Made by a program: the position numbers and the translations under genes. Shown here one piece after another: positions 4,101 to 54,639 of a stretch of 54,768 nucleotides of DNA. The notes beneath the pieces were generated by a model. The model was given only the letters and a program-made list of their open reading frames with translations. It ran no database searches and was not told the DNA's origin. The first letter of the stretch is position 1. Each line of letters opens with the position of its first letter. Source of the DNA: an uncultured archaeon (GTDB taxonomy: Archaea > Aenigmatarchaeota > Aenigmatarchaeia > CG10238-14 > SCSR01); the NCBI GenBank assembly GCA_964601215.1, contig CAZRMN010000002.1, positions 2,314-57,081 of the forward strand. Reading direction: 5' to 3'.

Positions 4101-4806
4101 AAACTTGTTCGGTTGGGTAAACTATAATTCCATCTTTAGTTATTCTTATCGGATGTATTCCTGTATCATGATCTGTATTTCTCATTTTTCTTATCGATAA
4201 AGCTCTAGTAAAAACGTTTCCTTCTTTTAAATAATAGAGAATTATTATACCATCAACAATAAATTCTTCTACACCAAAAGCTGAAATGCCTGTTGTACCT
4301 TCTGTAAGTTCGGATATTAAAATAGTTGTACAACCCAATTTTCTCAACATTCTGCTTAATTCAAAAATTCCTTTTCTAACTTCTAAAGGTTTCTCAAAAA
4401 AAAGACCTAAGATTGTTGATTGGTCTATCACTAACCTTTTTGCTTTTATTCTATCTACTTCATCTTGAATTAACATTTTTAATTTATCAAAGTTGTAAAG
4501 TTCGGCTTTAATGACAGAAATTAATTTTTTTTTGATCAAATTATTTAAATTCCAGCCGAAAGTTACAGATACACTCTTAATGATTCTTTCGGGTTCTTCT
4601 TCTAAGCTTATGTAAACTCCAGGCTCTTTGTATTTTACCGCTCCATTATAGAGAAATTGAAATGCAAAAAGTGTTTTACCAGAACCAGCAACTCCTGAAA
4701 GCAGAATGGTAGACTGAGCTGGTATTCCTCCGCTAATTAATTCGTCTAAACCTTTAATTCCAGTTTTAACTCTTTCTATTTTTGTCATTCTATACATATT
4801 TATCAA
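4093..4806 (-). CDS. Single-domain KaiC/RAD55-like RecA-fold ATPase
   Basis: KTGIKGLDELISGGIP, Walker A GVAGSGKT, SLEE, VIDQST, KMR. Confidence 0.9.
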   Translation of the reverse strand: MINMYRMTKIERVKTGIKGLDELISGGIPAQSTILLSGVAGSGKTLFAFQFLYNGAVKYKEPGVYISLEEEPERIIKSVSVTFGWNLNNLIKKKLISVIKAELYNFDKLKMLIQDEVDRIKAKRLVIDQSTILGLFFEKPLEVRKGIFELSRMLRKLGCTTILISELTEGTTGISAFGVEEFIVDGIIILYYLKEGNVFTRALSIRKMRNTDHDTGIHPIRITKDGIIVYPTEQVFK

Positions 4807-15692: not shown

Positions 15693-16179
15693 TAAAAGAA
15701 AGGAGCTAATAGTAAAGAAAATTGAAAATGGAACAGTAATAGACCATATACCAAAGGGTAAGGGTATAGTGGTTATGAGAATTTTAAGAGTAGATTGCAA
15801 CACAGAATGCTATCTTTTGCAAAATGTTGAGAGTAAAAAATTGGGCAGGAAAGATATAGTCAAAATAGTTGGAAGATATCCAAGCAAAGAAGAGGTAGAT
15901 GATATTGCAATAGTTGCACCTACAGCCACCATAAATTATGTTAAAAATTGGGGAATTTTTGATAAGTATAGAGTTAAACTACCAGAAAAAATAGAAGGTT
16001 TAATTAAGTGTCCAAACAACTTATGCATAACTAATCATGAAAGAGGTATGAAAACTGTTTTTAAAGTTTATCAATTCAAGAATGAGCTACTAAAAAATTT
16101 GTATGGAGACGTTTTACTTCAATGTTCTTATTGTGATACTTTAGTAAAGCATGAAAATATAGAGGAACTTTTGATATAG
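15685..16179 (+). CDS. pyrI: Aspartate carbamoyltransferase regulatory subunit
   Basis: KIENGTVIDHI, KDIVKI, APTATIN, CPNNLCIT...CSYC zinc site. Confidence 0.95.
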   Translation: MNDKRKELIVKKIENGTVIDHIPKGKGIVVMRILRVDCNTECYLLQNVESKKLGRKDIVKIVGRYPSKEEVDDIAIVAPTATINYVKNWGIFDKYRVKLPEKIEGLIKCPNNLCITNHERGMKTVFKVYQFKNELLKNLYGDVLLQCSYCDTLVKHENIEELLI

Positions 16180-16265
16180 CCCCGCCCGGATTCGAACCGG
16201 GGTCGCGAGGTCCAGAGCCTCGCATGCTTGACCATTCTGCTCCTGAAGATCTACACCACGGGGCT
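16177..16265 (-). tRNA. tRNA-Gln(CTG) with a 16-nt D-loop insertion (putative intron 15/16)
   Basis: AGCCCCG/CGGGGCT acceptor stem, CGAGG-CTCTGGA-CCTCG, CCCGG-TTCGAAT-CCGGG; extra ATCTTCAGGAGCAGAA between G15 and T16. Confidence 0.92.
16235..16250 (-). other. Putative non-canonical tRNA intron at 15/16
   Basis: Removal restores an ordinary AG-TGGTCAA D-loop; length fits BHB geometry (1 + 9-nt hairpin + 4 + 2) with 3 of 4 central pairs. Confidence 0.75.
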
Positions 16266-22906: not shown

Positions 22907-24337
22907 GTGAACGTGAAAAAGTTAAGTGTTATTGCTTTTTTAGTTAGCTTTTGCTTATTTATTTCTCCAGTTTTTGCACAAGTAGATTTGAAATTAAGCG
23001 AAGATTTTATTCGTCTATACGCTGGTGAATCTAAAGAAGTTTACGTAACGATTTTTAACAATCAAGATATAAAAGATAATTTTGTTTTAAGTATTTGGCC
23101 TCTTCCGCCTAGCGAGGTCAGTTTATCCCTCGAAAAGTATTTATTAACCTTAGAACCACATACAAATCAAACTATTAAAATGTTTTTGAGCGCTCCTGAA
23201 TGTGCTGGTGAAACTACAACCCAATTTAAGATTTCAACAAAAGCTACAACAACAAATGCTACTATATCCAAAAATTTCATCCTTTCAGTTTCAAGAAGGT
23301 ATATAATTTGCATTTCTGATTTTAAGTTAGATAAATACGGACCTTTTGAACCGAAGGATAGTTTTAAAATAACAGTCGACTTGACAAATCCAACAATTAA
23401 AAATTCTCCAGATTTTTACGTTCAAATTAACATTGAAAAAGATAATAAAATTGTAAAAAGATTCGATGACTACATTTCTACGCTACAGCAAAAGAGCTCG
23501 ACTTCAGTTTCTCATACTTATACTTTTGATAAATATGCAAGTCCAGGAGAATACATGATGGAAATTTTACTAAAAGACAACAAAGGAATAGTTAAAAGTA
23601 GTAAAAATTTAACTGTAGAAGTAAAAGCGATAAATAATACTGTTTTTAAAAGGTCTACTGAATTAAGCTTGCTTTCAGCTATAACCACAGTTGTAGCAAA
23701 GAATGAGGGAAATGTTCCAGTACCTATAACTATTAGAACTTCAATTCCAAGTTTTGCAAAAAACTTGTTCTTTGCAAAAGTAGCACCGAATAGAACTGAA
23801 GAAACTACTGGATGGGTAGAGTATGTATGGTATTTTGAAAATGTTAAGCCAGGAGAGGAAGTAAAAGTAGTTTATGAAATCAAACTTTTCTATGTTTGGG
23901 TTTTTGGTTTAATACTTGTTGCAATAGTAATTTTTGCTTTCAAGTTTGTTTATGGACCAACCTTAGTCAAAAAATATAAAAGAGTAAGTGCTTTGAAACC
24001 TGGCAAAGAACTTACTATAGCTCTAGAAGTGAAAAATAGAAGTAGACATGAAATAACTAACGTAGAAGTAAAAGATCTGGTTCCAAAAATTTTTAAGCTT
24101 ACTGGAAAGTTTGGAACTCTTAAACCAACTTCAATTAAAAAAACAGATAAAGGAACTATTCTTGTGTGGAAATTTAAATCTATTAATCCTATGGATGAAA
24201 GAGTTTTAACTTATGGTATTCAACCAACTATAGAAATGGCTGGAAAATTGAGACTTCCAAAGGCTATAATAAAATACCTGGACAAAAAGAAAAGAATTAA
24301 AAAACTAATTTCAAAGTCGATTTTGCTCAAGCCGTAG
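22907..24337 (+). CDS. Membrane protein: signal peptide, Ig-like beta domains, TM helix, cytoplasmic Ig-like domain
   Basis: Signal peptide ending VFA, N-x-T sequons, TM segment VWVFGLILVAIVIFAF, C-terminal LEVKNRS..EVKDLVP. Confidence 0.7.
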   Translation: MNVKKLSVIAFLVSFCLFISPVFAQVDLKLSEDFIRLYAGESKEVYVTIFNNQDIKDNFVLSIWPLPPSEVSLSLEKYLLTLEPHTNQTIKMFLSAPECAGETTTQFKISTKATTTNATISKNFILSVSRRYIICISDFKLDKYGPFEPKDSFKITVDLTNPTIKNSPDFYVQINIEKDNKIVKRFDDYISTLQQKSSTSVSHTYTFDKYASPGEYMMEILLKDNKGIVKSSKNLTVEVKAINNTVFKRSTELSLLSAITTVVAKNEGNVPVPITIRTSIPSFAKNLFFAKVAPNRTEETTGWVEYVWYFENVKPGEEVKVVYEIKLFYVWVFGLILVAIVIFAFKFVYGPTLVKKYKRVSALKPGKELTIALEVKNRSRHEITNVEVKDLVPKIFKLTGKFGTLKPTSIKKTDKGTILVWKFKSINPMDERVLTYGIQPTIEMAGKLRLPKAIIKYLDKKKRIKKLISKSILLKP

Positions 24338-24378: not shown

Positions 24379-24492
24379 CCCCGCTTAGCTCAACGGTAGA
24401 GCGACCGGCTGTAGATAAGTGCTTTGGCACTTGTTGGTAGCCATCGCTCAGCACATACCGGTAGGTTGGGAGTTCAAATCTCCCAGCGGGGA
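24379..24492 (+). tRNA. tRNA-Tyr(GTA) with a 42-nt intron at 37/38 (24415-24456)
   Basis: C1-G72 acceptor CCCCGCT/AGCGGGG, ACCGG-CTGTAG[intron]A-CCGGT, GGGAG-TTCAAAT-CTCCC. Confidence 0.95.
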
Positions 24493-24533
24493 CTTAACGT
24501 TAAGTTTAAAAAAGCTTGAACCAATTAATAAAT

Positions 24534-24653
24534 TGGTTGGCGACCAAAGCGGACGGGAACGACCTGGTCCCATTCCGAACCCAGAAGTCAAACCGTCCAG
24601 CGGTGTGGGCTGTACTCTCCGAAAGGAGGGGAACTCCACAACGTTGCCAACCA
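24534..24653 (+). rRNA. rrf: 5S rRNA
   Basis: Terminal helix TGGTTGGCGAC/GTTGCCAACCA; conserved CCCATTCCGAACCCAGAAGTCAA; 120 nt. Confidence 0.95.
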
Positions 24654-24702
24654 TTCATTTTTTTAAATTTTTAAGATGTATGGAATAAAATATTATAAGA
24701 AT

Positions 24703-24796
24703 GCCTCGGTCGTCTAGGGGCCTAGGATGCAGGCCTGTCACGCCTGAGATGGAAAACCATCGGCGAACGACACGGGTTCAAATCCCGTCCGAGGCG
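24703..24796 (+). tRNA. tRNA-Asp(GTC) with a 21-nt intron at 43/44
   Basis: GCCTCGG/CCGAGGC plus G73, CAGGC-CTGTCAC-GCCTG, ACGGG-TTCAAAT-CCCGT; 25 nt in place of the 4-nt variable region. Confidence 0.94.
24747..24767 (+). other. Non-canonical tRNA intron at 43/44 with BHB-like motif
   Basis: Central helix CGCC/GGCG, bulges TG^A and AA^C, intron hairpin GATGG-AAAA-CCATC; excision leaves CGAC. Confidence 0.88.
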
Positions 24797-24917
24797 TTTA
24801 GAAAAGCGTTAAGTTTAAAAATACTCAAATACTTATATAGGAATATTAACCATCGAGGGATGGTGGAAAAATTTAGAAATTGTTTCTCTAGTAGAAGGGC
24901 TTTTTTCCGGTGGTAGA

Positions 24918-48256: not shown

Positions 48257-48541
48257 GTGTCAAGAAAAAGTGCAACCGACCAAATAGTTTATAATTTTAT
48301 TTGTTCTAATCCTGGTTTGTGCACGTATGAAATAGCTAAAAGACTTAGAATGAGTGGAGGGAGAATAAGATACACTTTAAAAAAGTTAAAAGAAGTTGGG
48401 TTAGTTAGCTTCAAATTTGACAAAAGAAACCCTAGAATTAAAAAGTTAACTTTTCCTGTTGATATGTGGAAACTTTTGCCTAGAAAAATAAAAAATGAAA
48501 CCAAAAAGTTAATGCTTATAAAATATTCGAGAAGACATTAA
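48257..48541 (+). CDS. Small winged-helix transcriptional regulator
   Basis: NPGLCTYEIAKRLRMSGGRIRYTLKKLKEVGLV. Confidence 0.8.
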   Translation: MSRKSATDQIVYNFICSNPGLCTYEIAKRLRMSGGRIRYTLKKLKEVGLVSFKFDKRNPRIKKLTFPVDMWKLLPRKIKNETKKLMLIKYSRRH

Positions 48542-49897: not shown

Positions 49898-50071
49898 ATG
49901 AGAGTCATCAAAAACTTAAGATGCCCGAATTGCAAAAAACCCATTCCTTTCAAAACTTTAAAACTTACTGGAGGAAGATGCAATAAGTGTGGCTATATAA
50001 TAGCAACTTCTATTCTTAGATTCGCTAATAATGGAGGAAAAAAGTCTACAAAAATTCCTATAAAAAAATAA
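49898..50071 (+). CDS. Zn-ribbon microprotein, 57 aa
   Basis: Manual translation MRVIKNLRCPNCKKPIPFKTLKLTGGRCNKCGYIIATSILRFANNGGKKSTKIPIKK. Confidence 0.75.
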   Translation: MRVIKNLRCPNCKKPIPFKTLKLTGGRCNKCGYIIATSILRFANNGGKKSTKIPIKK

Positions 50072-50510: not shown

Positions 50511-51377
50511 ATGGAAAAAGAGATTTTGGAAAAATACAAAAAAGCTAAACAGGTTTCTGATGAAGTGAAAGAATTAGCTAGAGATTTAGTTAAAGATGGT
50601 GTAAAAATATTAGAGATAGCAGAAAAAGTTGAAAAAAGGATAAAAGAGTTGGGAGCTAAACCTGCTTTTCCTCTTAATATTTCAATTAACGAAATTGCAG
50701 CTCATTATACTCCTGACATAGACGATACTACAACTTTAAAAGAAGGTGACCTGGTAAAAATTGATATAGGAACACAAGTAGACGGATACATTTGGGATCG
50801 TGCGTTTACTGTTTGCATAGGAGAAAAAACACATCCCTTGATTGAAGTGTCTGAAAAAGCGCTTGAAGAAGCTTTAAAGCTGATTAAACCAGGGACAAAA
50901 GTTTGTGAAATTTCCGAAGTTGTAGAAGATACGGTATTAAACTATGGTTTTAATCCGGTACGCAACCTTTGTGGGCACGGATTAAGCAGGTTCAACCAAC
51001 ATGATCTTCCAACCATTCCAAACGGTAAAAATACTATTCAAACAGAAATAAAAGAAGGACAAGTAATTGCAATGGAAGTATTCGTTACAGATGGTGTTGG
51101 TCTAGTAAAGGAATCCTTTCCTGTTTTGATCTACAAGTTTAAACAACAAAAACCTGTAAGGCTCCCTGAAGCCAGAAAAATTTTAAACATGGCGATGAAC
51201 GAATTCAATTATTTACCTTTTGCTAAAAGATGGCTCGCAGGAAAAATACCAAAAATTAAAATCGACTTTGCTCTCAAAGAACTGGTAGAGGTTGGTGCTT
51301 TAATAGATTATCCCATTCTTAAAGAGGAAAGTAATAGACCTATTGCTCAAACAGAAGAAACGGTAATAGTTAAATGA
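50511..51377 (+). CDS. map: Methionine aminopeptidase type II
   Basis: AAHYTP, KIDIG..VDG..D, NLCGHGL, AMEVF, AQTEETVIV. Confidence 0.95.
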   Translation: MEKEILEKYKKAKQVSDEVKELARDLVKDGVKILEIAEKVEKRIKELGAKPAFPLNISINEIAAHYTPDIDDTTTLKEGDLVKIDIGTQVDGYIWDRAFTVCIGEKTHPLIEVSEKALEEALKLIKPGTKVCEISEVVEDTVLNYGFNPVRNLCGHGLSRFNQHDLPTIPNGKNTIQTEIKEGQVIAMEVFVTDGVGLVKESFPVLIYKFKQQKPVRLPEARKILNMAMNEFNYLPFAKRWLAGKIPKIKIDFALKELVEVGALIDYPILKEESNRPIAQTEETVIVK

Positions 51378-51590: not shown

Positions 51591-51773
51591 TCAAGAGTAT
51601 TTGCTCCTAATTCTGGATCTTGCAGACGAAAATCTAGCGAACAATCCCATCAACCTATAGCCGCATTTGCTACACTTTCCTTTAGTTTTTTTAAGACTTT
51701 TTTTAGTCATAATATTCCCACACTTCGGGCATTTTATTTTCGAAACACCCATTTTCCGATCCTCTTTGTCCAA
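51591..51773 (-). CDS. Zn-ribbon microprotein, paralog of 49898-50071
   Basis: CPKC-x15-CSKCGY-x7-RF. Confidence 0.75.
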   Translation of the reverse strand: MDKEDRKMGVSKIKCPKCGNIMTKKSLKKTKGKCSKCGYRLMGLFARFSSARSRIRSKYS

Positions 51774-51988
51774 TAATAGCTAGAATCCGATACTTCTTTT
51801 TTCACGATTTTTTTCTCTTCCAAAAGCTGTTTTAAATGGTTTTTGATAGTGTTCAAAGAAATAATTCTTTTTGTTTTTTCATTAACTTTAAAGTTAATAG
51901 ACAAGGGCTTTAAAGGAACTGGAGACTCTTCCAAAACTTTTAATATTACTGGGCCAAGAAAATCGTCCCGAGATTTGGTTCTAGCCAT
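51734..51988 (-). CDS. Small winged-helix protein
   Basis: ILKVLEES....ISLNTIKNHLKQLLEEKKIVK..YYW. Confidence 0.7.
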   Translation of the reverse strand: MARTKSRDDFLGPVILKVLEESPVPLKPLSINFKVNEKTKRIISLNTIKNHLKQLLEEKKIVKKEVSDSSYYWTKRIGKWVFRK

Positions 51989-52530: not shown

Positions 52531-52803
52531 TTGCGAAAGGATACCATCAAAAACATCGTGAAAATAGTTAAATGTTTACAGAGAGCTGAGGGAGGGTGGC
52601 TCTGGATTAGAGAAATTGCTAGACGTTGCAAACTACATCATAAAACTGTTTCTCGGCTTATTTCAAAGCATTTGGATATGTTTGTTGAAATTCAAACAAT
52701 GGAACCTTTTAACGTAAAAATGGTGAGGATTAAACCAGGGACAGATATAAACGGGGTCTTCAGGTTTCTGAGCGTGATGGAAAAACTAGAAAAACCTAAA
52801 TAA
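52531..52803 (+). CDS. HTH protein (TTG start)
   Basis: WLWIREIARRCKLHHKTVSRLI helix-turn-helix. Confidence 0.75.
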   Translation: MRKDTIKNIVKIVKCLQRAEGGWLWIREIARRCKLHHKTVSRLISKHLDMFVEIQTMEPFNVKMVRIKPGTDINGVFRFLSVMEKLEKPK

Positions 52804-52874: not shown

Positions 52875-52976
52875 ATGAATAAAGTGTTCATGCCATGTAA
52901 AAAGTGTAATAATTTAATCGAGGTGAGTGTTTTCGAAAAGCCTAAATACTGCCCCTTTTGTCATTCTAAGTTATGA
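52875..52976 (+). CDS. 33-aa Zn-ribbon peptide
   Basis: Manual translation MNKVFMPCKKCNNLIEVSVFEKPKYCPFCHSKL. Confidence 0.6.
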   Translation: MNKVFMPCKKCNNLIEVSVFEKPKYCPFCHSKL

Positions 52977-53722
52977 TTTAACGCTTCTGAGCGATTTAAA
53001 GCGCTTTGAAGCGCTCCTTTATATCTTACCCATCCTTGTCCATTTTTTTCAAATCTTTCTATTTCATCTGTTCTTTTAACCATATTAGTAAGCAAACCCC
53101 TAAGACCCGAGGTATTCTTCCATCCTAGTCTTTGGGCGAGATCTTTATAACTGATTTCTCCAGCAGATTTAACTATAGCCAAAACTTCCTTCATTCTAGG
53201 AGTTAAGGGTAATTGTCTCTCTATTTTTTCTACTTCGGTCAAAATTTCCTCTTTAATTGGTGAGGGTGCAATTTCTGCTGTTTTTTTAATAGAATCAATA
53301 GAATTTTGAATTATTTCTAGTTTTTTGTTAATATTTTCATCATGGGATCTTAGAAGCTCTTTGATCTCTTGTATAGAGTTTAAAGAATCTGCAAAATTAG
53401 ATAAAAACCATTCTTTGGAAGTCATTTGAGATTCTATTCGATGTAGGGATGATTCTATTTCTCGCAAGGTTCGCCCTGTGTATCCTGCGGCAATTCCCAA
53501 TTGTAAAGAATCCCTCTGAAGTTCTATTGAATCTTTGGGTTTCATAGGTTCATAAACTTCTGATTTTTCTATCGATTCTGAAGCGCTTTGAAGCGCTTTG
53601 AAGCGATCTTGAAGCGCTTTTGCATCGCTTTGAAGCGCTTTAAAATTATTTGAAGCGCTTTGAAGCGCTTCGGGACTGCGCTTTTTTCGAAATAGATTAA
53701 TGATCTTGCTAAAAAAGCCCAT
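52961..53722 (-). CDS. Amphipathic N-terminal helix + repeat region + coiled coil + C-terminal wHTH protein
   Basis: MGFFSKIINLFRKK; KALQS repeats; coiled coil about aa 85-165; LTPRMKEVLAIVK..GEISYKDLAQRLG...GWVRY. Confidence 0.8.
   Translation of the reverse strand: MGFFSKIINLFRKKRSPEALQSASNNFKALQSDAKALQDRFKALQSASESIEKSEVYEPMKPKDSIELQRDSLQLGIAAGYTGRTLREIESSLHRIESQMTSKEWFLSNFADSLNSIQEIKELLRSHDENINKKLEIIQNSIDSIKKTAEIAPSPIKEEILTEVEKIERQLPLTPRMKEVLAIVKSAGEISYKDLAQRLGWKNTSGLRGLLTNMVKRTDEIERFEKNGQGWVRYKGALQSALNRSEALNHNLE
52979..53016. repeat. Four-unit 10-bp phased array of AAGCGCTT-like sites at the 3' end of the ORF
   Basis: TAACGCTT 52979, GAGCGATT 52989, AAGCGCTT 52999, AAGCGCTC 53009. Confidence 0.75.
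53581..53670. repeat. Phased array of palindromic AAGCGCTT (unit TGAAGCGCTT) at the 5' end of the ORF
   Basis: Perfect copies at 53581, 53591, 53612, 53633, 53653, 53663; variants at 53601 and 53623. Confidence 0.92.
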
Positions 53723-53971
53723 ATTTTTAATTTATTTTTTAACTATTTAACTCTTACTTTTTAGAAATCCTCACTTTGTTTGGAAGAGTCGGCTTCGAGG
53801 TCTGCAACTCTAAACTCTCACTTTTTCTGAAGATAGAAAAAAATTCACTTTTCAAACTTTGTCTATAAAATTTTCTATTTTTTCCAATTTATACTTTTTA
53901 CAAAATTATAAAAAAATATTTTTAAGATTAAACAAAAAATATATAAATAGAAAAAAATATATAATAAAATT

Positions 53972-54450: not shown

Positions 54451-54639
54451 CTAAAATTTTGCCTTTCTAAACGCACTTCTAATAGCTTTTAAGCAATCAG
54501 AACATACATTCAAGAATCTGTAGCTTCTATAAGTAGATCTTAACCTGTAAACATCACCCTTTTTATGACAAAAATCACAAGTGCCGCGATACCCGCCCTC
54601 AATTTTAATTTTTGTAATCCTTTTCATTCCTTTAACCAT
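54451..54639 (-). CDS. Small Zn-finger protein
   Basis: CDFC-x21-CSDC followed by a basic helix. Confidence 0.65.
   Translation of the reverse strand: MVKGMKRITKIKIEGGYRGTCDFCHKKGDVYRLRSTYRSYRFLNVCSDCLKAIRSAFRKAKF

Follow-up and report, generated by a model that had tools for sequence, protein, structure and literature searches.

DNA-binding proteins with cis-acting sites inside their own genes are a kind of system that is already known. For example, Spo0J/ParB is a helix-turn-helix (HTH) chromosome organizer with a parS site inside spo0J. A related organizer, Noc, brings DNA to the membrane through an N-terminal amphipathic helix. Cooperative binding at short, regular intervals is also familiar, both for tandem winged helices, which in PhoB/OmpR sit on direct repeats with a 10–11-bp period along one face of the DNA, and for centromere arrays of 10–11-bp repeats, as in ParR/parC. 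Here, we analyze a gene in a 54,768-nucleotide stretch of the genome of an uncultured archaeon of the Aenigmatarchaeota (contig CAZRMN010000002.1; this whole stretch is called the window). The focal gene encodes a protein of 253 amino acids and carries arrays of ~10-bp repeats toward both ends of its own open reading frame (ORF). Its closest described counterparts are analogs of the system and not its relatives.

In the lambda O gene, iterons lie mid-gene and are translated, and added iterons add residues to the protein (PMC7466680). The likeness lies in having the binding sites of a DNA-binding protein inside its own gene, in lambda as a phased and bent array; the O gene thus makes it clear that translated arrays of sites inside the gene of their reader are workable. 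However, there is no kinship in sequence or fold. The lambda iterons are 19 bp long and form one cluster beside an AT-rich unwinding region, whereas the units of the focal gene are ~10 bp long and are grouped into two or three clusters at the ends of the gene, in an archaeal chromosomal core gene that has no replication context and encodes a predicted membrane-type N-terminal helix. The sites of Spo0J and Noc differ in another respect, as parS and Noc sites are single 14–16-bp palindromes scattered over the chromosome, unlike 10-bp arrays in one gene. The focal protein has no ParB/Srx CTPase domain, no ParB-type family is found among its Pfam and NCBIfam matches even at E values up to 1, and no ParA lies nearby.

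Attachment of DNA to the membrane or the pole has been demonstrated for bacterial proteins. RicO of Staphylococcus aureus, with a DNA-binding domain and an amphipathic-helix anchor, tethers a chromosomal region to the envelope (bioRxiv 10.64898/2026.03.06.710092), and RacA of Bacillus subtilis has a DNA-binding domain and a coiled coil plus a DivIVA pole anchor (PMC4914108); in both cases the region tethered is a defined one. The focal protein would resemble both in joining a sequence-specific DNA-binding domain to a membrane or pole anchor. However, RicO and RacA are bacterial and unrelated to it in sequence, have their DNA-binding domain at the N-terminus, use dispersed sites near the origin, and have functions that have been shown. 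The type II and type Ib plasmid centromeres (ParR/parC of R1 and pSK41; AspA of pNOB8) place arrays of 10–11-bp or 20-bp repeats beside the gene of the binder, which forms a cooperative, continuous nucleoprotein filament and also autoregulates. Those sites lie upstream of the operon and are untranslated, and a gene for a motor (ParM or ParA) invariably accompanies them. ParR has a ribbon-helix-helix fold, whereas the fold predicted for the focal protein is a winged helix of the MarR/ArsR type. A P-loop scan of 40 loci (39 from GTDB species-representative genomes plus the window, nearly all labeled Aenigmatarchaeota) found no ParA- or ParM-type motor near the gene. PhoB and OmpR are response regulators that act at promoter sites, while the focal protein has no receiver domain and its sites are intragenic.

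Repeat arrays in the focal gene

A preliminary description of the window, made from its letters alone, had reported six perfect palindromes and two variants in the 5' part of the gene and a second array of four units at its 3' end. On recounting, both arrays were present and all of the unit positions and spacings of the first were correct. Exact copies of AAGCGCTT start at 53581, 53591, 53612, 53633, 53653, and 53663, joined by the variants AAGCGATC at 53601 and CATCGCTT at 53623, for spacings of 10, 10, 11, 11, 10, 20, and 10 bp when the variants are included. The 3' units read AACGCTTC, GAGCGATT, AAGCGCTT, and AAGCGCTC, of which one, at 52999, is perfect. Eight exact copies of AAGCGCTT occur in the window against 0.61 expected (maximum of 3 over 100 shuffles), and seven fall within the 762 bp of the focal gene; the eighth, at 50857 inside the methionine aminopeptidase gene, was taken as chance. 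Similarly, the gene has eight copies of AGCGCT, and the remaining 52.9 kb have only two, with 1.2 expected there. When one mismatch is allowed, the 8-mer is not enriched window-wide (28 observed versus 21.9 expected), so the enrichment is local to the gene. Tandem Repeats Finder gives the 5' array the best score in the window (110, with a period of 10 and 9.0 copies; others score at most 59) and scores 52990–53015 at 38. The 5' array occupies positions +52 to +142 of the ORF and encodes residues 18–48. No array unit lies in the intergenic region upstream of the gene, no motif copy with up to one mismatch is found beyond 53670, and there is no comparable cluster within ~10 kb on either side of the gene. 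The local enrichment proposed in the preliminary description extends to the family: over the 40 loci, the generalized core [AT][GT]CG[CA]T reaches 9.4 per kb in the gene versus 1.28 per kb in 512 kb of flanks.

Repeats inside an ORF may belong to the protein or have a neutral origin, either as low-complexity peptide repeats produced by slippage and gene conversion or as a phase-variable contingency repeat. The arrays do lie in segments that AlphaFold2 models at low confidence (residues 12–65 and the tail) and that tolerate almost any sequence; the number of units differs between species, and the (AATC)n arrays of some lineages resemble microsatellites. However, a single DNA unit is read in three frames. 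In the window, successive units fall in different frames, with GAA GCG CTT CAA AGC GCT TCA giving E-A-L-Q-S-A-S, and three tandem AAGCGCTTCA units produce the peptide KRFKALQSAS. Across the family, cores are read 128 times as KAL/EAL, 82 times as SAS/SDL/SDA, and 54 times as ERF/KRF/KRS, and successive cores are most often 10 bp apart (90 cases), followed by 11 bp (37) and 9 bp (22). The earlier view that codon duplication does not account for the periodicity is thus upheld by the three frames and by constraint on synonymous sites.

This constraint is seen first in how Ala-Leu is encoded. Among 59 Ala-Leu pairs in the linkers and tails of 16 AAGCGCTT-group species, 40 are written GCGCTT and 14 more GCGCTN, while only 10 of 193 Ala-Leu pairs in other ORFs of the same loci use GCGCTT. 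We then compared codons at residues identical between the window protein and its orthologs, in the arrays and in the core. For an ortholog 86% identical in protein, the codon was the same at 43/43 array positions versus 110/168 core positions; the figures were 30/32 versus 67/124 for an ortholog at 68% and 22/22 versus 45/98 for one at 53%. Eight of nine orthologs had the same codons at 88–100% of array positions and 44–65% of core positions, and the ninth had 74% versus 47%. Synonymous sites are therefore frozen between proteins that are only 45–86% identical. A conserved KALQS peptide with scrambled synonymous codons had been named as the pattern that would speak against a DNA-level repeat, and the opposite is found. 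The repeat is also rare elsewhere: among 241 million metagenome records, a 21-mer of two units was located 15 times. Of these places, 12 lie inside homologs, and the three outside the family (L044, L049, and L054) are unrelated contexts, two of them on contigs with 52–56% GC. The L049 contig (38% GC), which has no homolog of the focal gene, carries around 4103–4123 a tandem repeat outside coding sequence, with about five GTTTCAAAGC-like units of 10 bp, that ends in the same AGCGCTTCAAAGCGCTTCAAA 21-mer.

As anticipated in the preliminary description, homologs carry a different motif of their own at both ends of the gene. The linker motif is AAGCGCTTCA in the clade of the window and many others, AGCGATGCAA in L027, CGATACGAAT at an exact 10-bp period in L033, GATTCAATCG in L023 and L036, and TTACATCG in L028, and several clades have (AATC)n-based units. 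Most major clades of the family have retained the AGCGCTTCAA unit, which speaks against neutral drift of a peptide repeat. In most cases, the linker motif of a lineage is found again at the 3' end of the gene. In 35/40 loci, the 220 bp around the stop codon contain nine-mers of the 5' linker, and in 24/40 this zone exceeds every other 220-bp segment of its own locus, with 7–27 matches versus a background maximum of 1–7. The 3' zone of the window has 15 nine-mers in common with the 5' linker, more than any of 486 other segments of that length. In six further loci, a second array lies mid-gene in the conserved helix (E/K)RF(K/E)ALQSALN, and L023 carries its own CGATTCAA motif at the mid-gene site too.

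The location of the 3' copies is informative as well. Where such copies are defined by at least 11 identical bases, 27 loci have them: in 13 they lie within the ORF, in 5 across the stop codon, and in 9 beyond it, including two calls that are probably spurious and due to low complexity (L026, inside; L036, past the stop). Examples of copies past or spanning the stop codon are found in L004, L014, L018, L020, and L023. Copies past the stop codon in independent lineages with different motifs cannot be explained by a peptide. Phase variation fares no better, as the units are imperfect and interrupted, the arrays are identical in the ortholog at 86%, and the ORF is intact in nearly all of the 40 loci (L007 may carry a read-through). 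Taken together, the frames, the spacing, the frozen synonymous sites, and the recurring motifs indicate that the repeats are nucleic-acid elements under purifying selection and specific to the focal gene. On the same comparative evidence, the arrays co-vary between the two ends of the gene across a phylum-level family, and KALQS-type peptides are by-products of the nucleic-acid repeats. A peptide-level or neutral origin is essentially excluded by these comparisons.

The molecule that carries the signal and its candidate readers

Nucleic-acid elements inside a gene could act as DNA or as RNA. At the RNA level, the arrays would be sites in the mRNA for an RNA-binding factor, possibly the product of the gene itself in translational autoregulation, or they would form structures for stability or termination. 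All arrays lie inside the presumed transcript, including the copies just past the stop codon, and most 3' copies of non-palindromic motifs have the same orientation as the 5' copies. Two neighboring units pair without mismatch over 7 bp, as counted by eye, and a bacterial-type promoter and terminator scan, which counts 8 pairs and a 4-nt loop, flags such two-unit hairpins with a T-run at 53652–53671 and 53000–53015. In lineages with palindromic motifs, the 5' array folds much better as RNA than shuffled sequences do (z from -2.3 to -4.7). However, in the (AATC)n lineages z ranges from 0.4 to 1.3 (-0.9 in L030), so these arrays have no structure, yet they obey the same matching of 5' and 3' motifs. 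RNA structure was consequently rejected as a conserved property, being present only with palindromic motifs. A terminator reading of the hairpins was set aside because the T-run is not conserved (L001 has none); archaeal termination needs no hairpins.

The bias in orientation is explained by coding, since (AATC)n, when reverse-complemented, contains TGA in all three frames, as read from its letters. Where this bias is broken, in L007 and L031, a non-palindromic motif is inverted at the 3' end, so that its RNA would not have the sequence of the 5' copies. A period of 10–11 bp is a property of duplex DNA and not of RNA, and the fold of the encoded protein is that of DNA-binding repressors. Given the period, the inverted copies, and the structureless but motif-matched (AATC)n lineages, we favor the interpretation that the arrays are duplex DNA sites, and consider an RNA-level element unlikely.

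The protein encoded by the focal gene has a predicted architecture suited to such sites. An AlphaFold2 model built with 34 homologs has a helix at residues 4–11, a low-confidence linker at 12–65, helices over 68–170, a winged helix, and a short tail. The winged HTH domain proposed in the preliminary description is well supported, both by the confidence of the model (Table 1) and by Foldseek matches with a probability of 1.0 to MarR, ArsR/SmtB, and BlaI/MecI repressors, several of which were solved on DNA; E values for MarR, SmtB, CadC, NolR–DNA, and BlaI–DNA are only ~3e-3 to 3e-2. The model has the three-helix bundle and beta-hairpin wing that define the MarR/ArsR fold class on solved repressors. 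The winged helix in a model of a fused form of the protein (see below) also matches TrmBL2 and, weakly, the centromere-binding protein AspA. At the sequence level, the focal protein has weak matches to HTH_24 and Sul12a, and the match to the Sul12a chromatin family (NCBIfam NF053609) reaches 25.1 bits versus a cut-off of 150 and covers only residues 173–199. No Pfam or NCBIfam family is matched at its curated cut-off, and PADLOC gives only weak coiled-coil matches; those to Spectrin, SMC, JetC, and LmuB were dismissed as coiled-coil noise. A profile search of PDB sequences returned nothing better than an E value of 0.07.

The helical core between linker and winged helix contains a near-invariant segment, LQLGIAAGYTGRxLREIESSLxRIESQM..KDWF (alignment A1). 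Its helices are modeled at residues 68–99, 103–151, and 156–170, with a predicted local distance difference test score (pLDDT) of ~50–65 over residues 61–80 that rises to 75–90, and the long helices probably form a coiled-coil oligomerization module. The N-terminal segment is conserved family-wide as MGxxDRxLxxFRKK. Over its first 13 residues, the window protein has a hydrophobic moment of 0.53 and a net charge of +4, which makes the helix moderately amphipathic, with hydrophobic residues at positions 3, 4, 7, 8, 10, and 11; the family mean is 0.51 versus 0.34 in shuffled sequences. From these properties, a membrane role for the helix is plausible.

Two proteins encoded at the locus, both with predicted DNA-binding domains, are candidate readers. 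The first, F1, is the product of a convergent HTH gene (Table 1). Lineages whose motifs differ (AAGCGCTT, AATCAATC, and CGATTCAA) share one F1 recognition helix, HHKTVSRLI, and a protein with an invariant recognition helix is an unlikely reader of variable arrays. The second is the focal protein itself. Proteins of AGCGCTT-type lineages have xNMxKRT in helix 3 and IERF in the wing, with E as the wing residue in 71/79, while in (AATC)n-type proteins the Asn of helix 3 is replaced and the wing reads IQR, with Q in 18/22. A tree from which the DNA-reading part of the protein was excluded places the (AATC)n type in four or more distinct clades. Such covariation between helix 3, the wing, and motif class may be regarded as suggestive only. 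A single wing residue (IERF versus IQRF) as the determinant of specificity was rejected, given exceptions in the tree despite a strong overall association. The most economical reading is that the product of the gene binds the arrays in it. The best-supported mechanism, to which we assign a probability of about 45%, is binding of the arrays by the protein's own winged helix combined with attachment to the membrane.

Several observations weigh against this mechanism. The covariation with motif class is partial and confounded by phylogeny, with exceptions in L008, P0075, P0089, and P0099. Sites were placed inside the ORF even though a 250-bp intergenic region lies directly upstream. No 3' copy of at least 11 bp is found in 13/40 loci; six of these have the mid-gene array and seven have neither. 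The helical phasing put forward in the preliminary description holds across the family as a core spacing of 10±1 bp, but it does not extend to the (AATC)n lineages, which lack 10-bp phasing and have 4-bp base repeats with super-periods of 12, 16, or 19 bp. All of the arrays are probably transcribed, which makes an RNA reader possible. The amphipathicity of the N-terminal helix is moderate, and shuffled sequences equal or exceed the observed moment in a median of 17% of cases. Finally, there is no motor or partner ATPase nearby.

Neighboring genes and distribution

Next to the focal gene in the window, divergently oriented, is a stand-alone gene whose 141-residue product is predicted to have a PD-(D/E)xK fold (Table 1). 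It has zero matches in Pfam, NCBIfam, and PADLOC; we related it by hhalign (91.8% probability, E = 7.5e-7) to a C-terminal module that is fused to the focal protein in roughly 15–20% of family members, for example in P0041, P0047, P0065, P0068, and P0072. In L022 (961–1683), the module is a separate gene directly downstream of the ortholog. Consequently, three arrangements with the focal family are seen: fused, directly downstream, and divergent upstream. A model of the fused domain (12 sequences, pLDDT 80–90) matches XisH (2okf; template modeling score 0.63), PaqCI, EcoT38I, PspGI, and Hjc, and has the alpha/beta core and D...(D/E)xK signature of the superfamily. Equivalents of D30, E43, K45, and a Q are invariant in six fused or adjacent forms (alignment A3), and the Asp and Lys are nearly invariant in a 12-sequence alignment (A4). 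The window copy reads D63...E76-V-E78-K79, with its catalytic lysine shifted by one position relative to E-x-K. This recurrent fusion and adjacency links a predicted nuclease-fold protein to the array system.

The arrays might also be DNA sites for another trans-acting factor or process: an origin and its initiator, a methylation-dependent binder of the SeqA/GATC type, or a substrate for cleavage or recombination by the PD-(D/E)xK protein. The conserved D..ExK signature of the module, which is fused, adjacent, or divergent in many family members, is consistent with the last of these; most members, however, lack the module. Genes for a XerA-like recombinase and PolB are frequent neighbors. The cores AGCGCT and ATCGAT look like methyltransferase sites, and short palindromic cores centered on CG change between lineages as restriction–modification specificities do. 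Against this, no methyltransferase was noticed among the recurrent neighbor families that we examined, and with 2 copies elsewhere in the window for 1.2 expected, AGCGCT is not avoided there.

For an origin, lambda shows that iterons are possible inside an initiator gene (PMC7466680), and replication initiation was one of the functions suggested in the preliminary description. Neither Orc1/Cdc6 nor a conserved P-loop gene is present within 8 kb in the 40 loci, where the pattern G..G.GK[ST] matched just two ORFs, both unrelated and both in L014. Orc1/Cdc6 was not found among ten window ORFs of 330–476 amino acids scanned with Pfam (52 kb, on one side), and no distinct AT-rich unwinding element stands out beside the arrays. 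The predicted fold, a single winged helix after long helices, differs from that of initiators (WH1–WH2 or the lambda O N-terminal domain). Among matches to PDB sequences, RctB was the sole initiator (E = 0.53), and for ParB-type proteins there was only a weak VirB tail match (E = 0.46). Both GC skew and cumulative skew follow the coding strand over the window, and the gene lies only 1 kb from the window end, so skew is uninformative on an origin. We found no support for a replication origin at the locus. Any reader other than the focal protein would also leave unaccounted for why the sites stay with a single gene in every lineage, and we consider another trans-acting factor or process unlikely as well.

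The preliminary description had further proposed a one-gene system. Taken strictly, this does not agree with the recurrence of three partners: F1, the PD-(D/E)xK module, and a small Zn-ribbon ORF. F1 adjoins the focal gene in 34/40 loci and has only sub-threshold HTH matches in Pfam, in scans of the neighbors with Pfam, NCBIfam, and PADLOC. The Zn-ribbon ORF, which with 33 amino acids falls below the 40-amino-acid listing limit of the ORF tool, gave only sub-threshold HTH or Zn-ribbon matches in the same scans. A homologous ORF (VNVPCxKCH..EK..CPxC..KW) is found at the same place in 25/40 loci. It is convergent to the focal gene and overlaps its last codons, and the 3' array lies just past the Zn-ribbon stop codon. 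Consequently, the 3' array marks the junction of the focal gene with a convergent unit, which comprises F1 and the Zn-ribbon ORF. On the other side, a TATA-like TTAAATAG can be read ~25 bp upstream of the focal ATG.

Table 1. Coordinates of the focal gene, its parts, and its immediate neighbors in the window.
Feature	Position	Strand	Remarks
Focal gene (analysis family F0)	52961..53722	-	ORF, 253 aa
N-terminal cationic helix MGFFSKIINLFRKK	53681..53722	-	Predicted membrane-targeting helix; AlphaFold2 helix 4–11
5' array	53579..53670		Eight ~10-bp units (six perfect AAGCGCTT) in alternating frames
Helical core, aa 66–170	53213..53527	-	Alignment A1 and AlphaFold2 helices
C-terminal winged HTH, aa 175–234	53021..53200	-	AlphaFold2 pLDDT ~90
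3' array	52979..53016		Four units at exactly 10 bp; encodes C-terminal tail, aa 236–248 (GALQSALNRSEAL)
Zn-ribbon ORF, 33 aa (MNKVFMPCKKCNNLIEVSVFEKPKYCPFCHSKL)	52876..52977	+	Read from sequence
F1, convergent HTH gene, 90 aa (WLWIREIARRCKLHHKTVSRLI)	52531..52803	+	
Divergent intergenic region	53723..53971		AT-rich; presumed promoters of focal and PD-(D/E)xK genes
Stand-alone PD-(D/E)xK-fold gene, 141 aa	53972..54397	+	Divergent neighbor of focal gene

The wider neighborhood is that of a cellular chromosome. The window is archaeal, with a GC content of 32%, a 5S rRNA, intron-bearing tRNAs, and housekeeping genes (FtsY, SRP54, Pus10, RNA polymerase A'', ThiI, EF-1alpha, and the CCA-adding enzyme). 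A methionine aminopeptidase gene lies near the focal gene in 25/40 loci, and other neighbors include SAM synthetase, GluRS, EF-2, PolB, deoxyhypusine synthase, and the XerA-like recombinase. Given these housekeeping neighbors, the focal gene is a chromosomal core gene and not a mobile element. A viral origin of the family was rejected after a scan of IMG/VR viral contigs found no relatives. The 90%-clustered database holds 147 homologs, mostly labeled as hypothetical proteins of Aenigmatarchaeota, and an exhaustive profile search of 1.84 billion representatives recovered only 113 clusters at 50% identity. The family, found almost only in Aenigmarchaeota, is outside every described family, and literature searches on the motif and on Aenigmarchaeota proteins with such an architecture yielded no account of it.

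Some features of individual loci deserve mention. A gene for a tyrosine recombinase, called XerA-like from a reading of its sequence, lies one to three genes upstream of the ortholog in L010–L013, L016, and L038, and PolB recurs within ~8 kb of the ortholog in several loci. A 70-amino-acid ORF lies directly upstream of the ortholog in L010, L029, L033, and L037 and has weak, sub-threshold Pfam matches to PaaX_M and CRISPR_Cas2 (E ~1e-4). Identical focal proteins occur in contigs of different species-representative metagenome-assembled genomes (MAGs) from the same hot-spring series (L015/L016/L017; L020/L021), and one MAG, JZ-1_201709_bins_39, has two different family members on two contigs. 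These cases could reflect mixed bins or two paralogs.

The window itself contains further small ORFs of the CxxC...CxxC Zn-ribbon kind, of 57–62 amino acids, at 49898–50071 (+), 51591–51773 (-), and 54451–54639 (-). There are also two more small HTH-like ORFs, at 51734–51988 and ~48257–48541; the latter comes from family clustering of the reversed window, and the ORF tool lists none there. The 5S rRNA gene (24536–24652) sits between two long, probably intron-bearing tRNAs (24379–24797), one of which, at 24379–24492, was found by Rfam and missed by ARAGORN; the other is tRNA-Asp (24702–24797). ARAGORN alone called a tRNA-Gln at 16177–16250. A 476-amino-acid ORF at 22907–24337 (+) matches no Pfam family at E values up to 1e-5.

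A proposed mechanism and its meaning

If the focal protein does bind its own gene, the repeats would be cis-acting double-stranded DNA sites inside the coding sequence of their reader. The 253-residue product would probably oligomerize through its helical core, and its winged helices would bind the phased 10–11-bp sites cooperatively, along one face of the helix, both in the segment encoding the 5' linker and at the 3' end, perhaps with looping of the two arrays. In some species, the set of sites in the mid-gene helix would be added to these. The outcome would be a compact nucleoprotein complex over the ~0.75-kb locus, held at the membrane by the cationic amphipathic N-terminal helix. At a minimum, such a complex would bring about autoregulation, by acting as a roadblock on its own transcript (~+50 to +140) and at the convergent-operon junction. 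From the position of the arrays, early in the ORF and at a convergent junction, a bound array could block transcription from both directions and so provide insulation together with autoregulation.

The conserved cationic helix and the long helical core suggest a role beyond that of a simple repressor. On the model of Noc, RacA, and RicO, the protein may form a complex with DNA at a single locus that is held at the membrane, and the larger role of this complex may be that of a single-locus chromosome anchor. In its fullest form, this would be a minimal, self-referential anchor for chromosomes of DPANN archaea, in which a single gene supplies the anchor protein together with its binding sites, written in three frames of the ORF and found at high density nowhere else in the genome. 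While being made, the protein would seize the locus that encodes it, in cis, and fasten it to the membrane, as a motor-free point centromere of a single locus. Specificity and sites would co-evolve by lineage, and in some lineages the nuclease-fold module would add site-specific cleavage or junction processing. We consider this full scheme speculative and on balance unlikely.

Aenigmarchaeota belong to the DPANN archaea, which are tiny organisms. Almost nothing is known of the organization, anchoring, and segregation of the small chromosomes of DPANN archaea, and the family described here, annotated only as hypothetical protein, is conserved across the recovered Aenigmarchaeota species. As a natural example of dual coding, the locus is unusually clear: a 10-bp DNA signal is kept through an ORF and forces peptides like KRFKALQSAS. 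The signal changes between lineages, yet it stays matched at two or three places per gene. The proposed mechanism predicts that each protein binds its own arrays, that specificity can be swapped between lineages, and that the N-terminal peptide binds lipid, and the family would offer ready-made cognate pairs of protein and site with which to study the evolution of winged-helix specificity. Even if the role is limited to autoregulation, the architecture would be new, with operators inside an ORF and at a convergent gene junction. Should anchoring prove true, DPANN archaea would have in this locus their first candidate for a centromere-like or anchor element.

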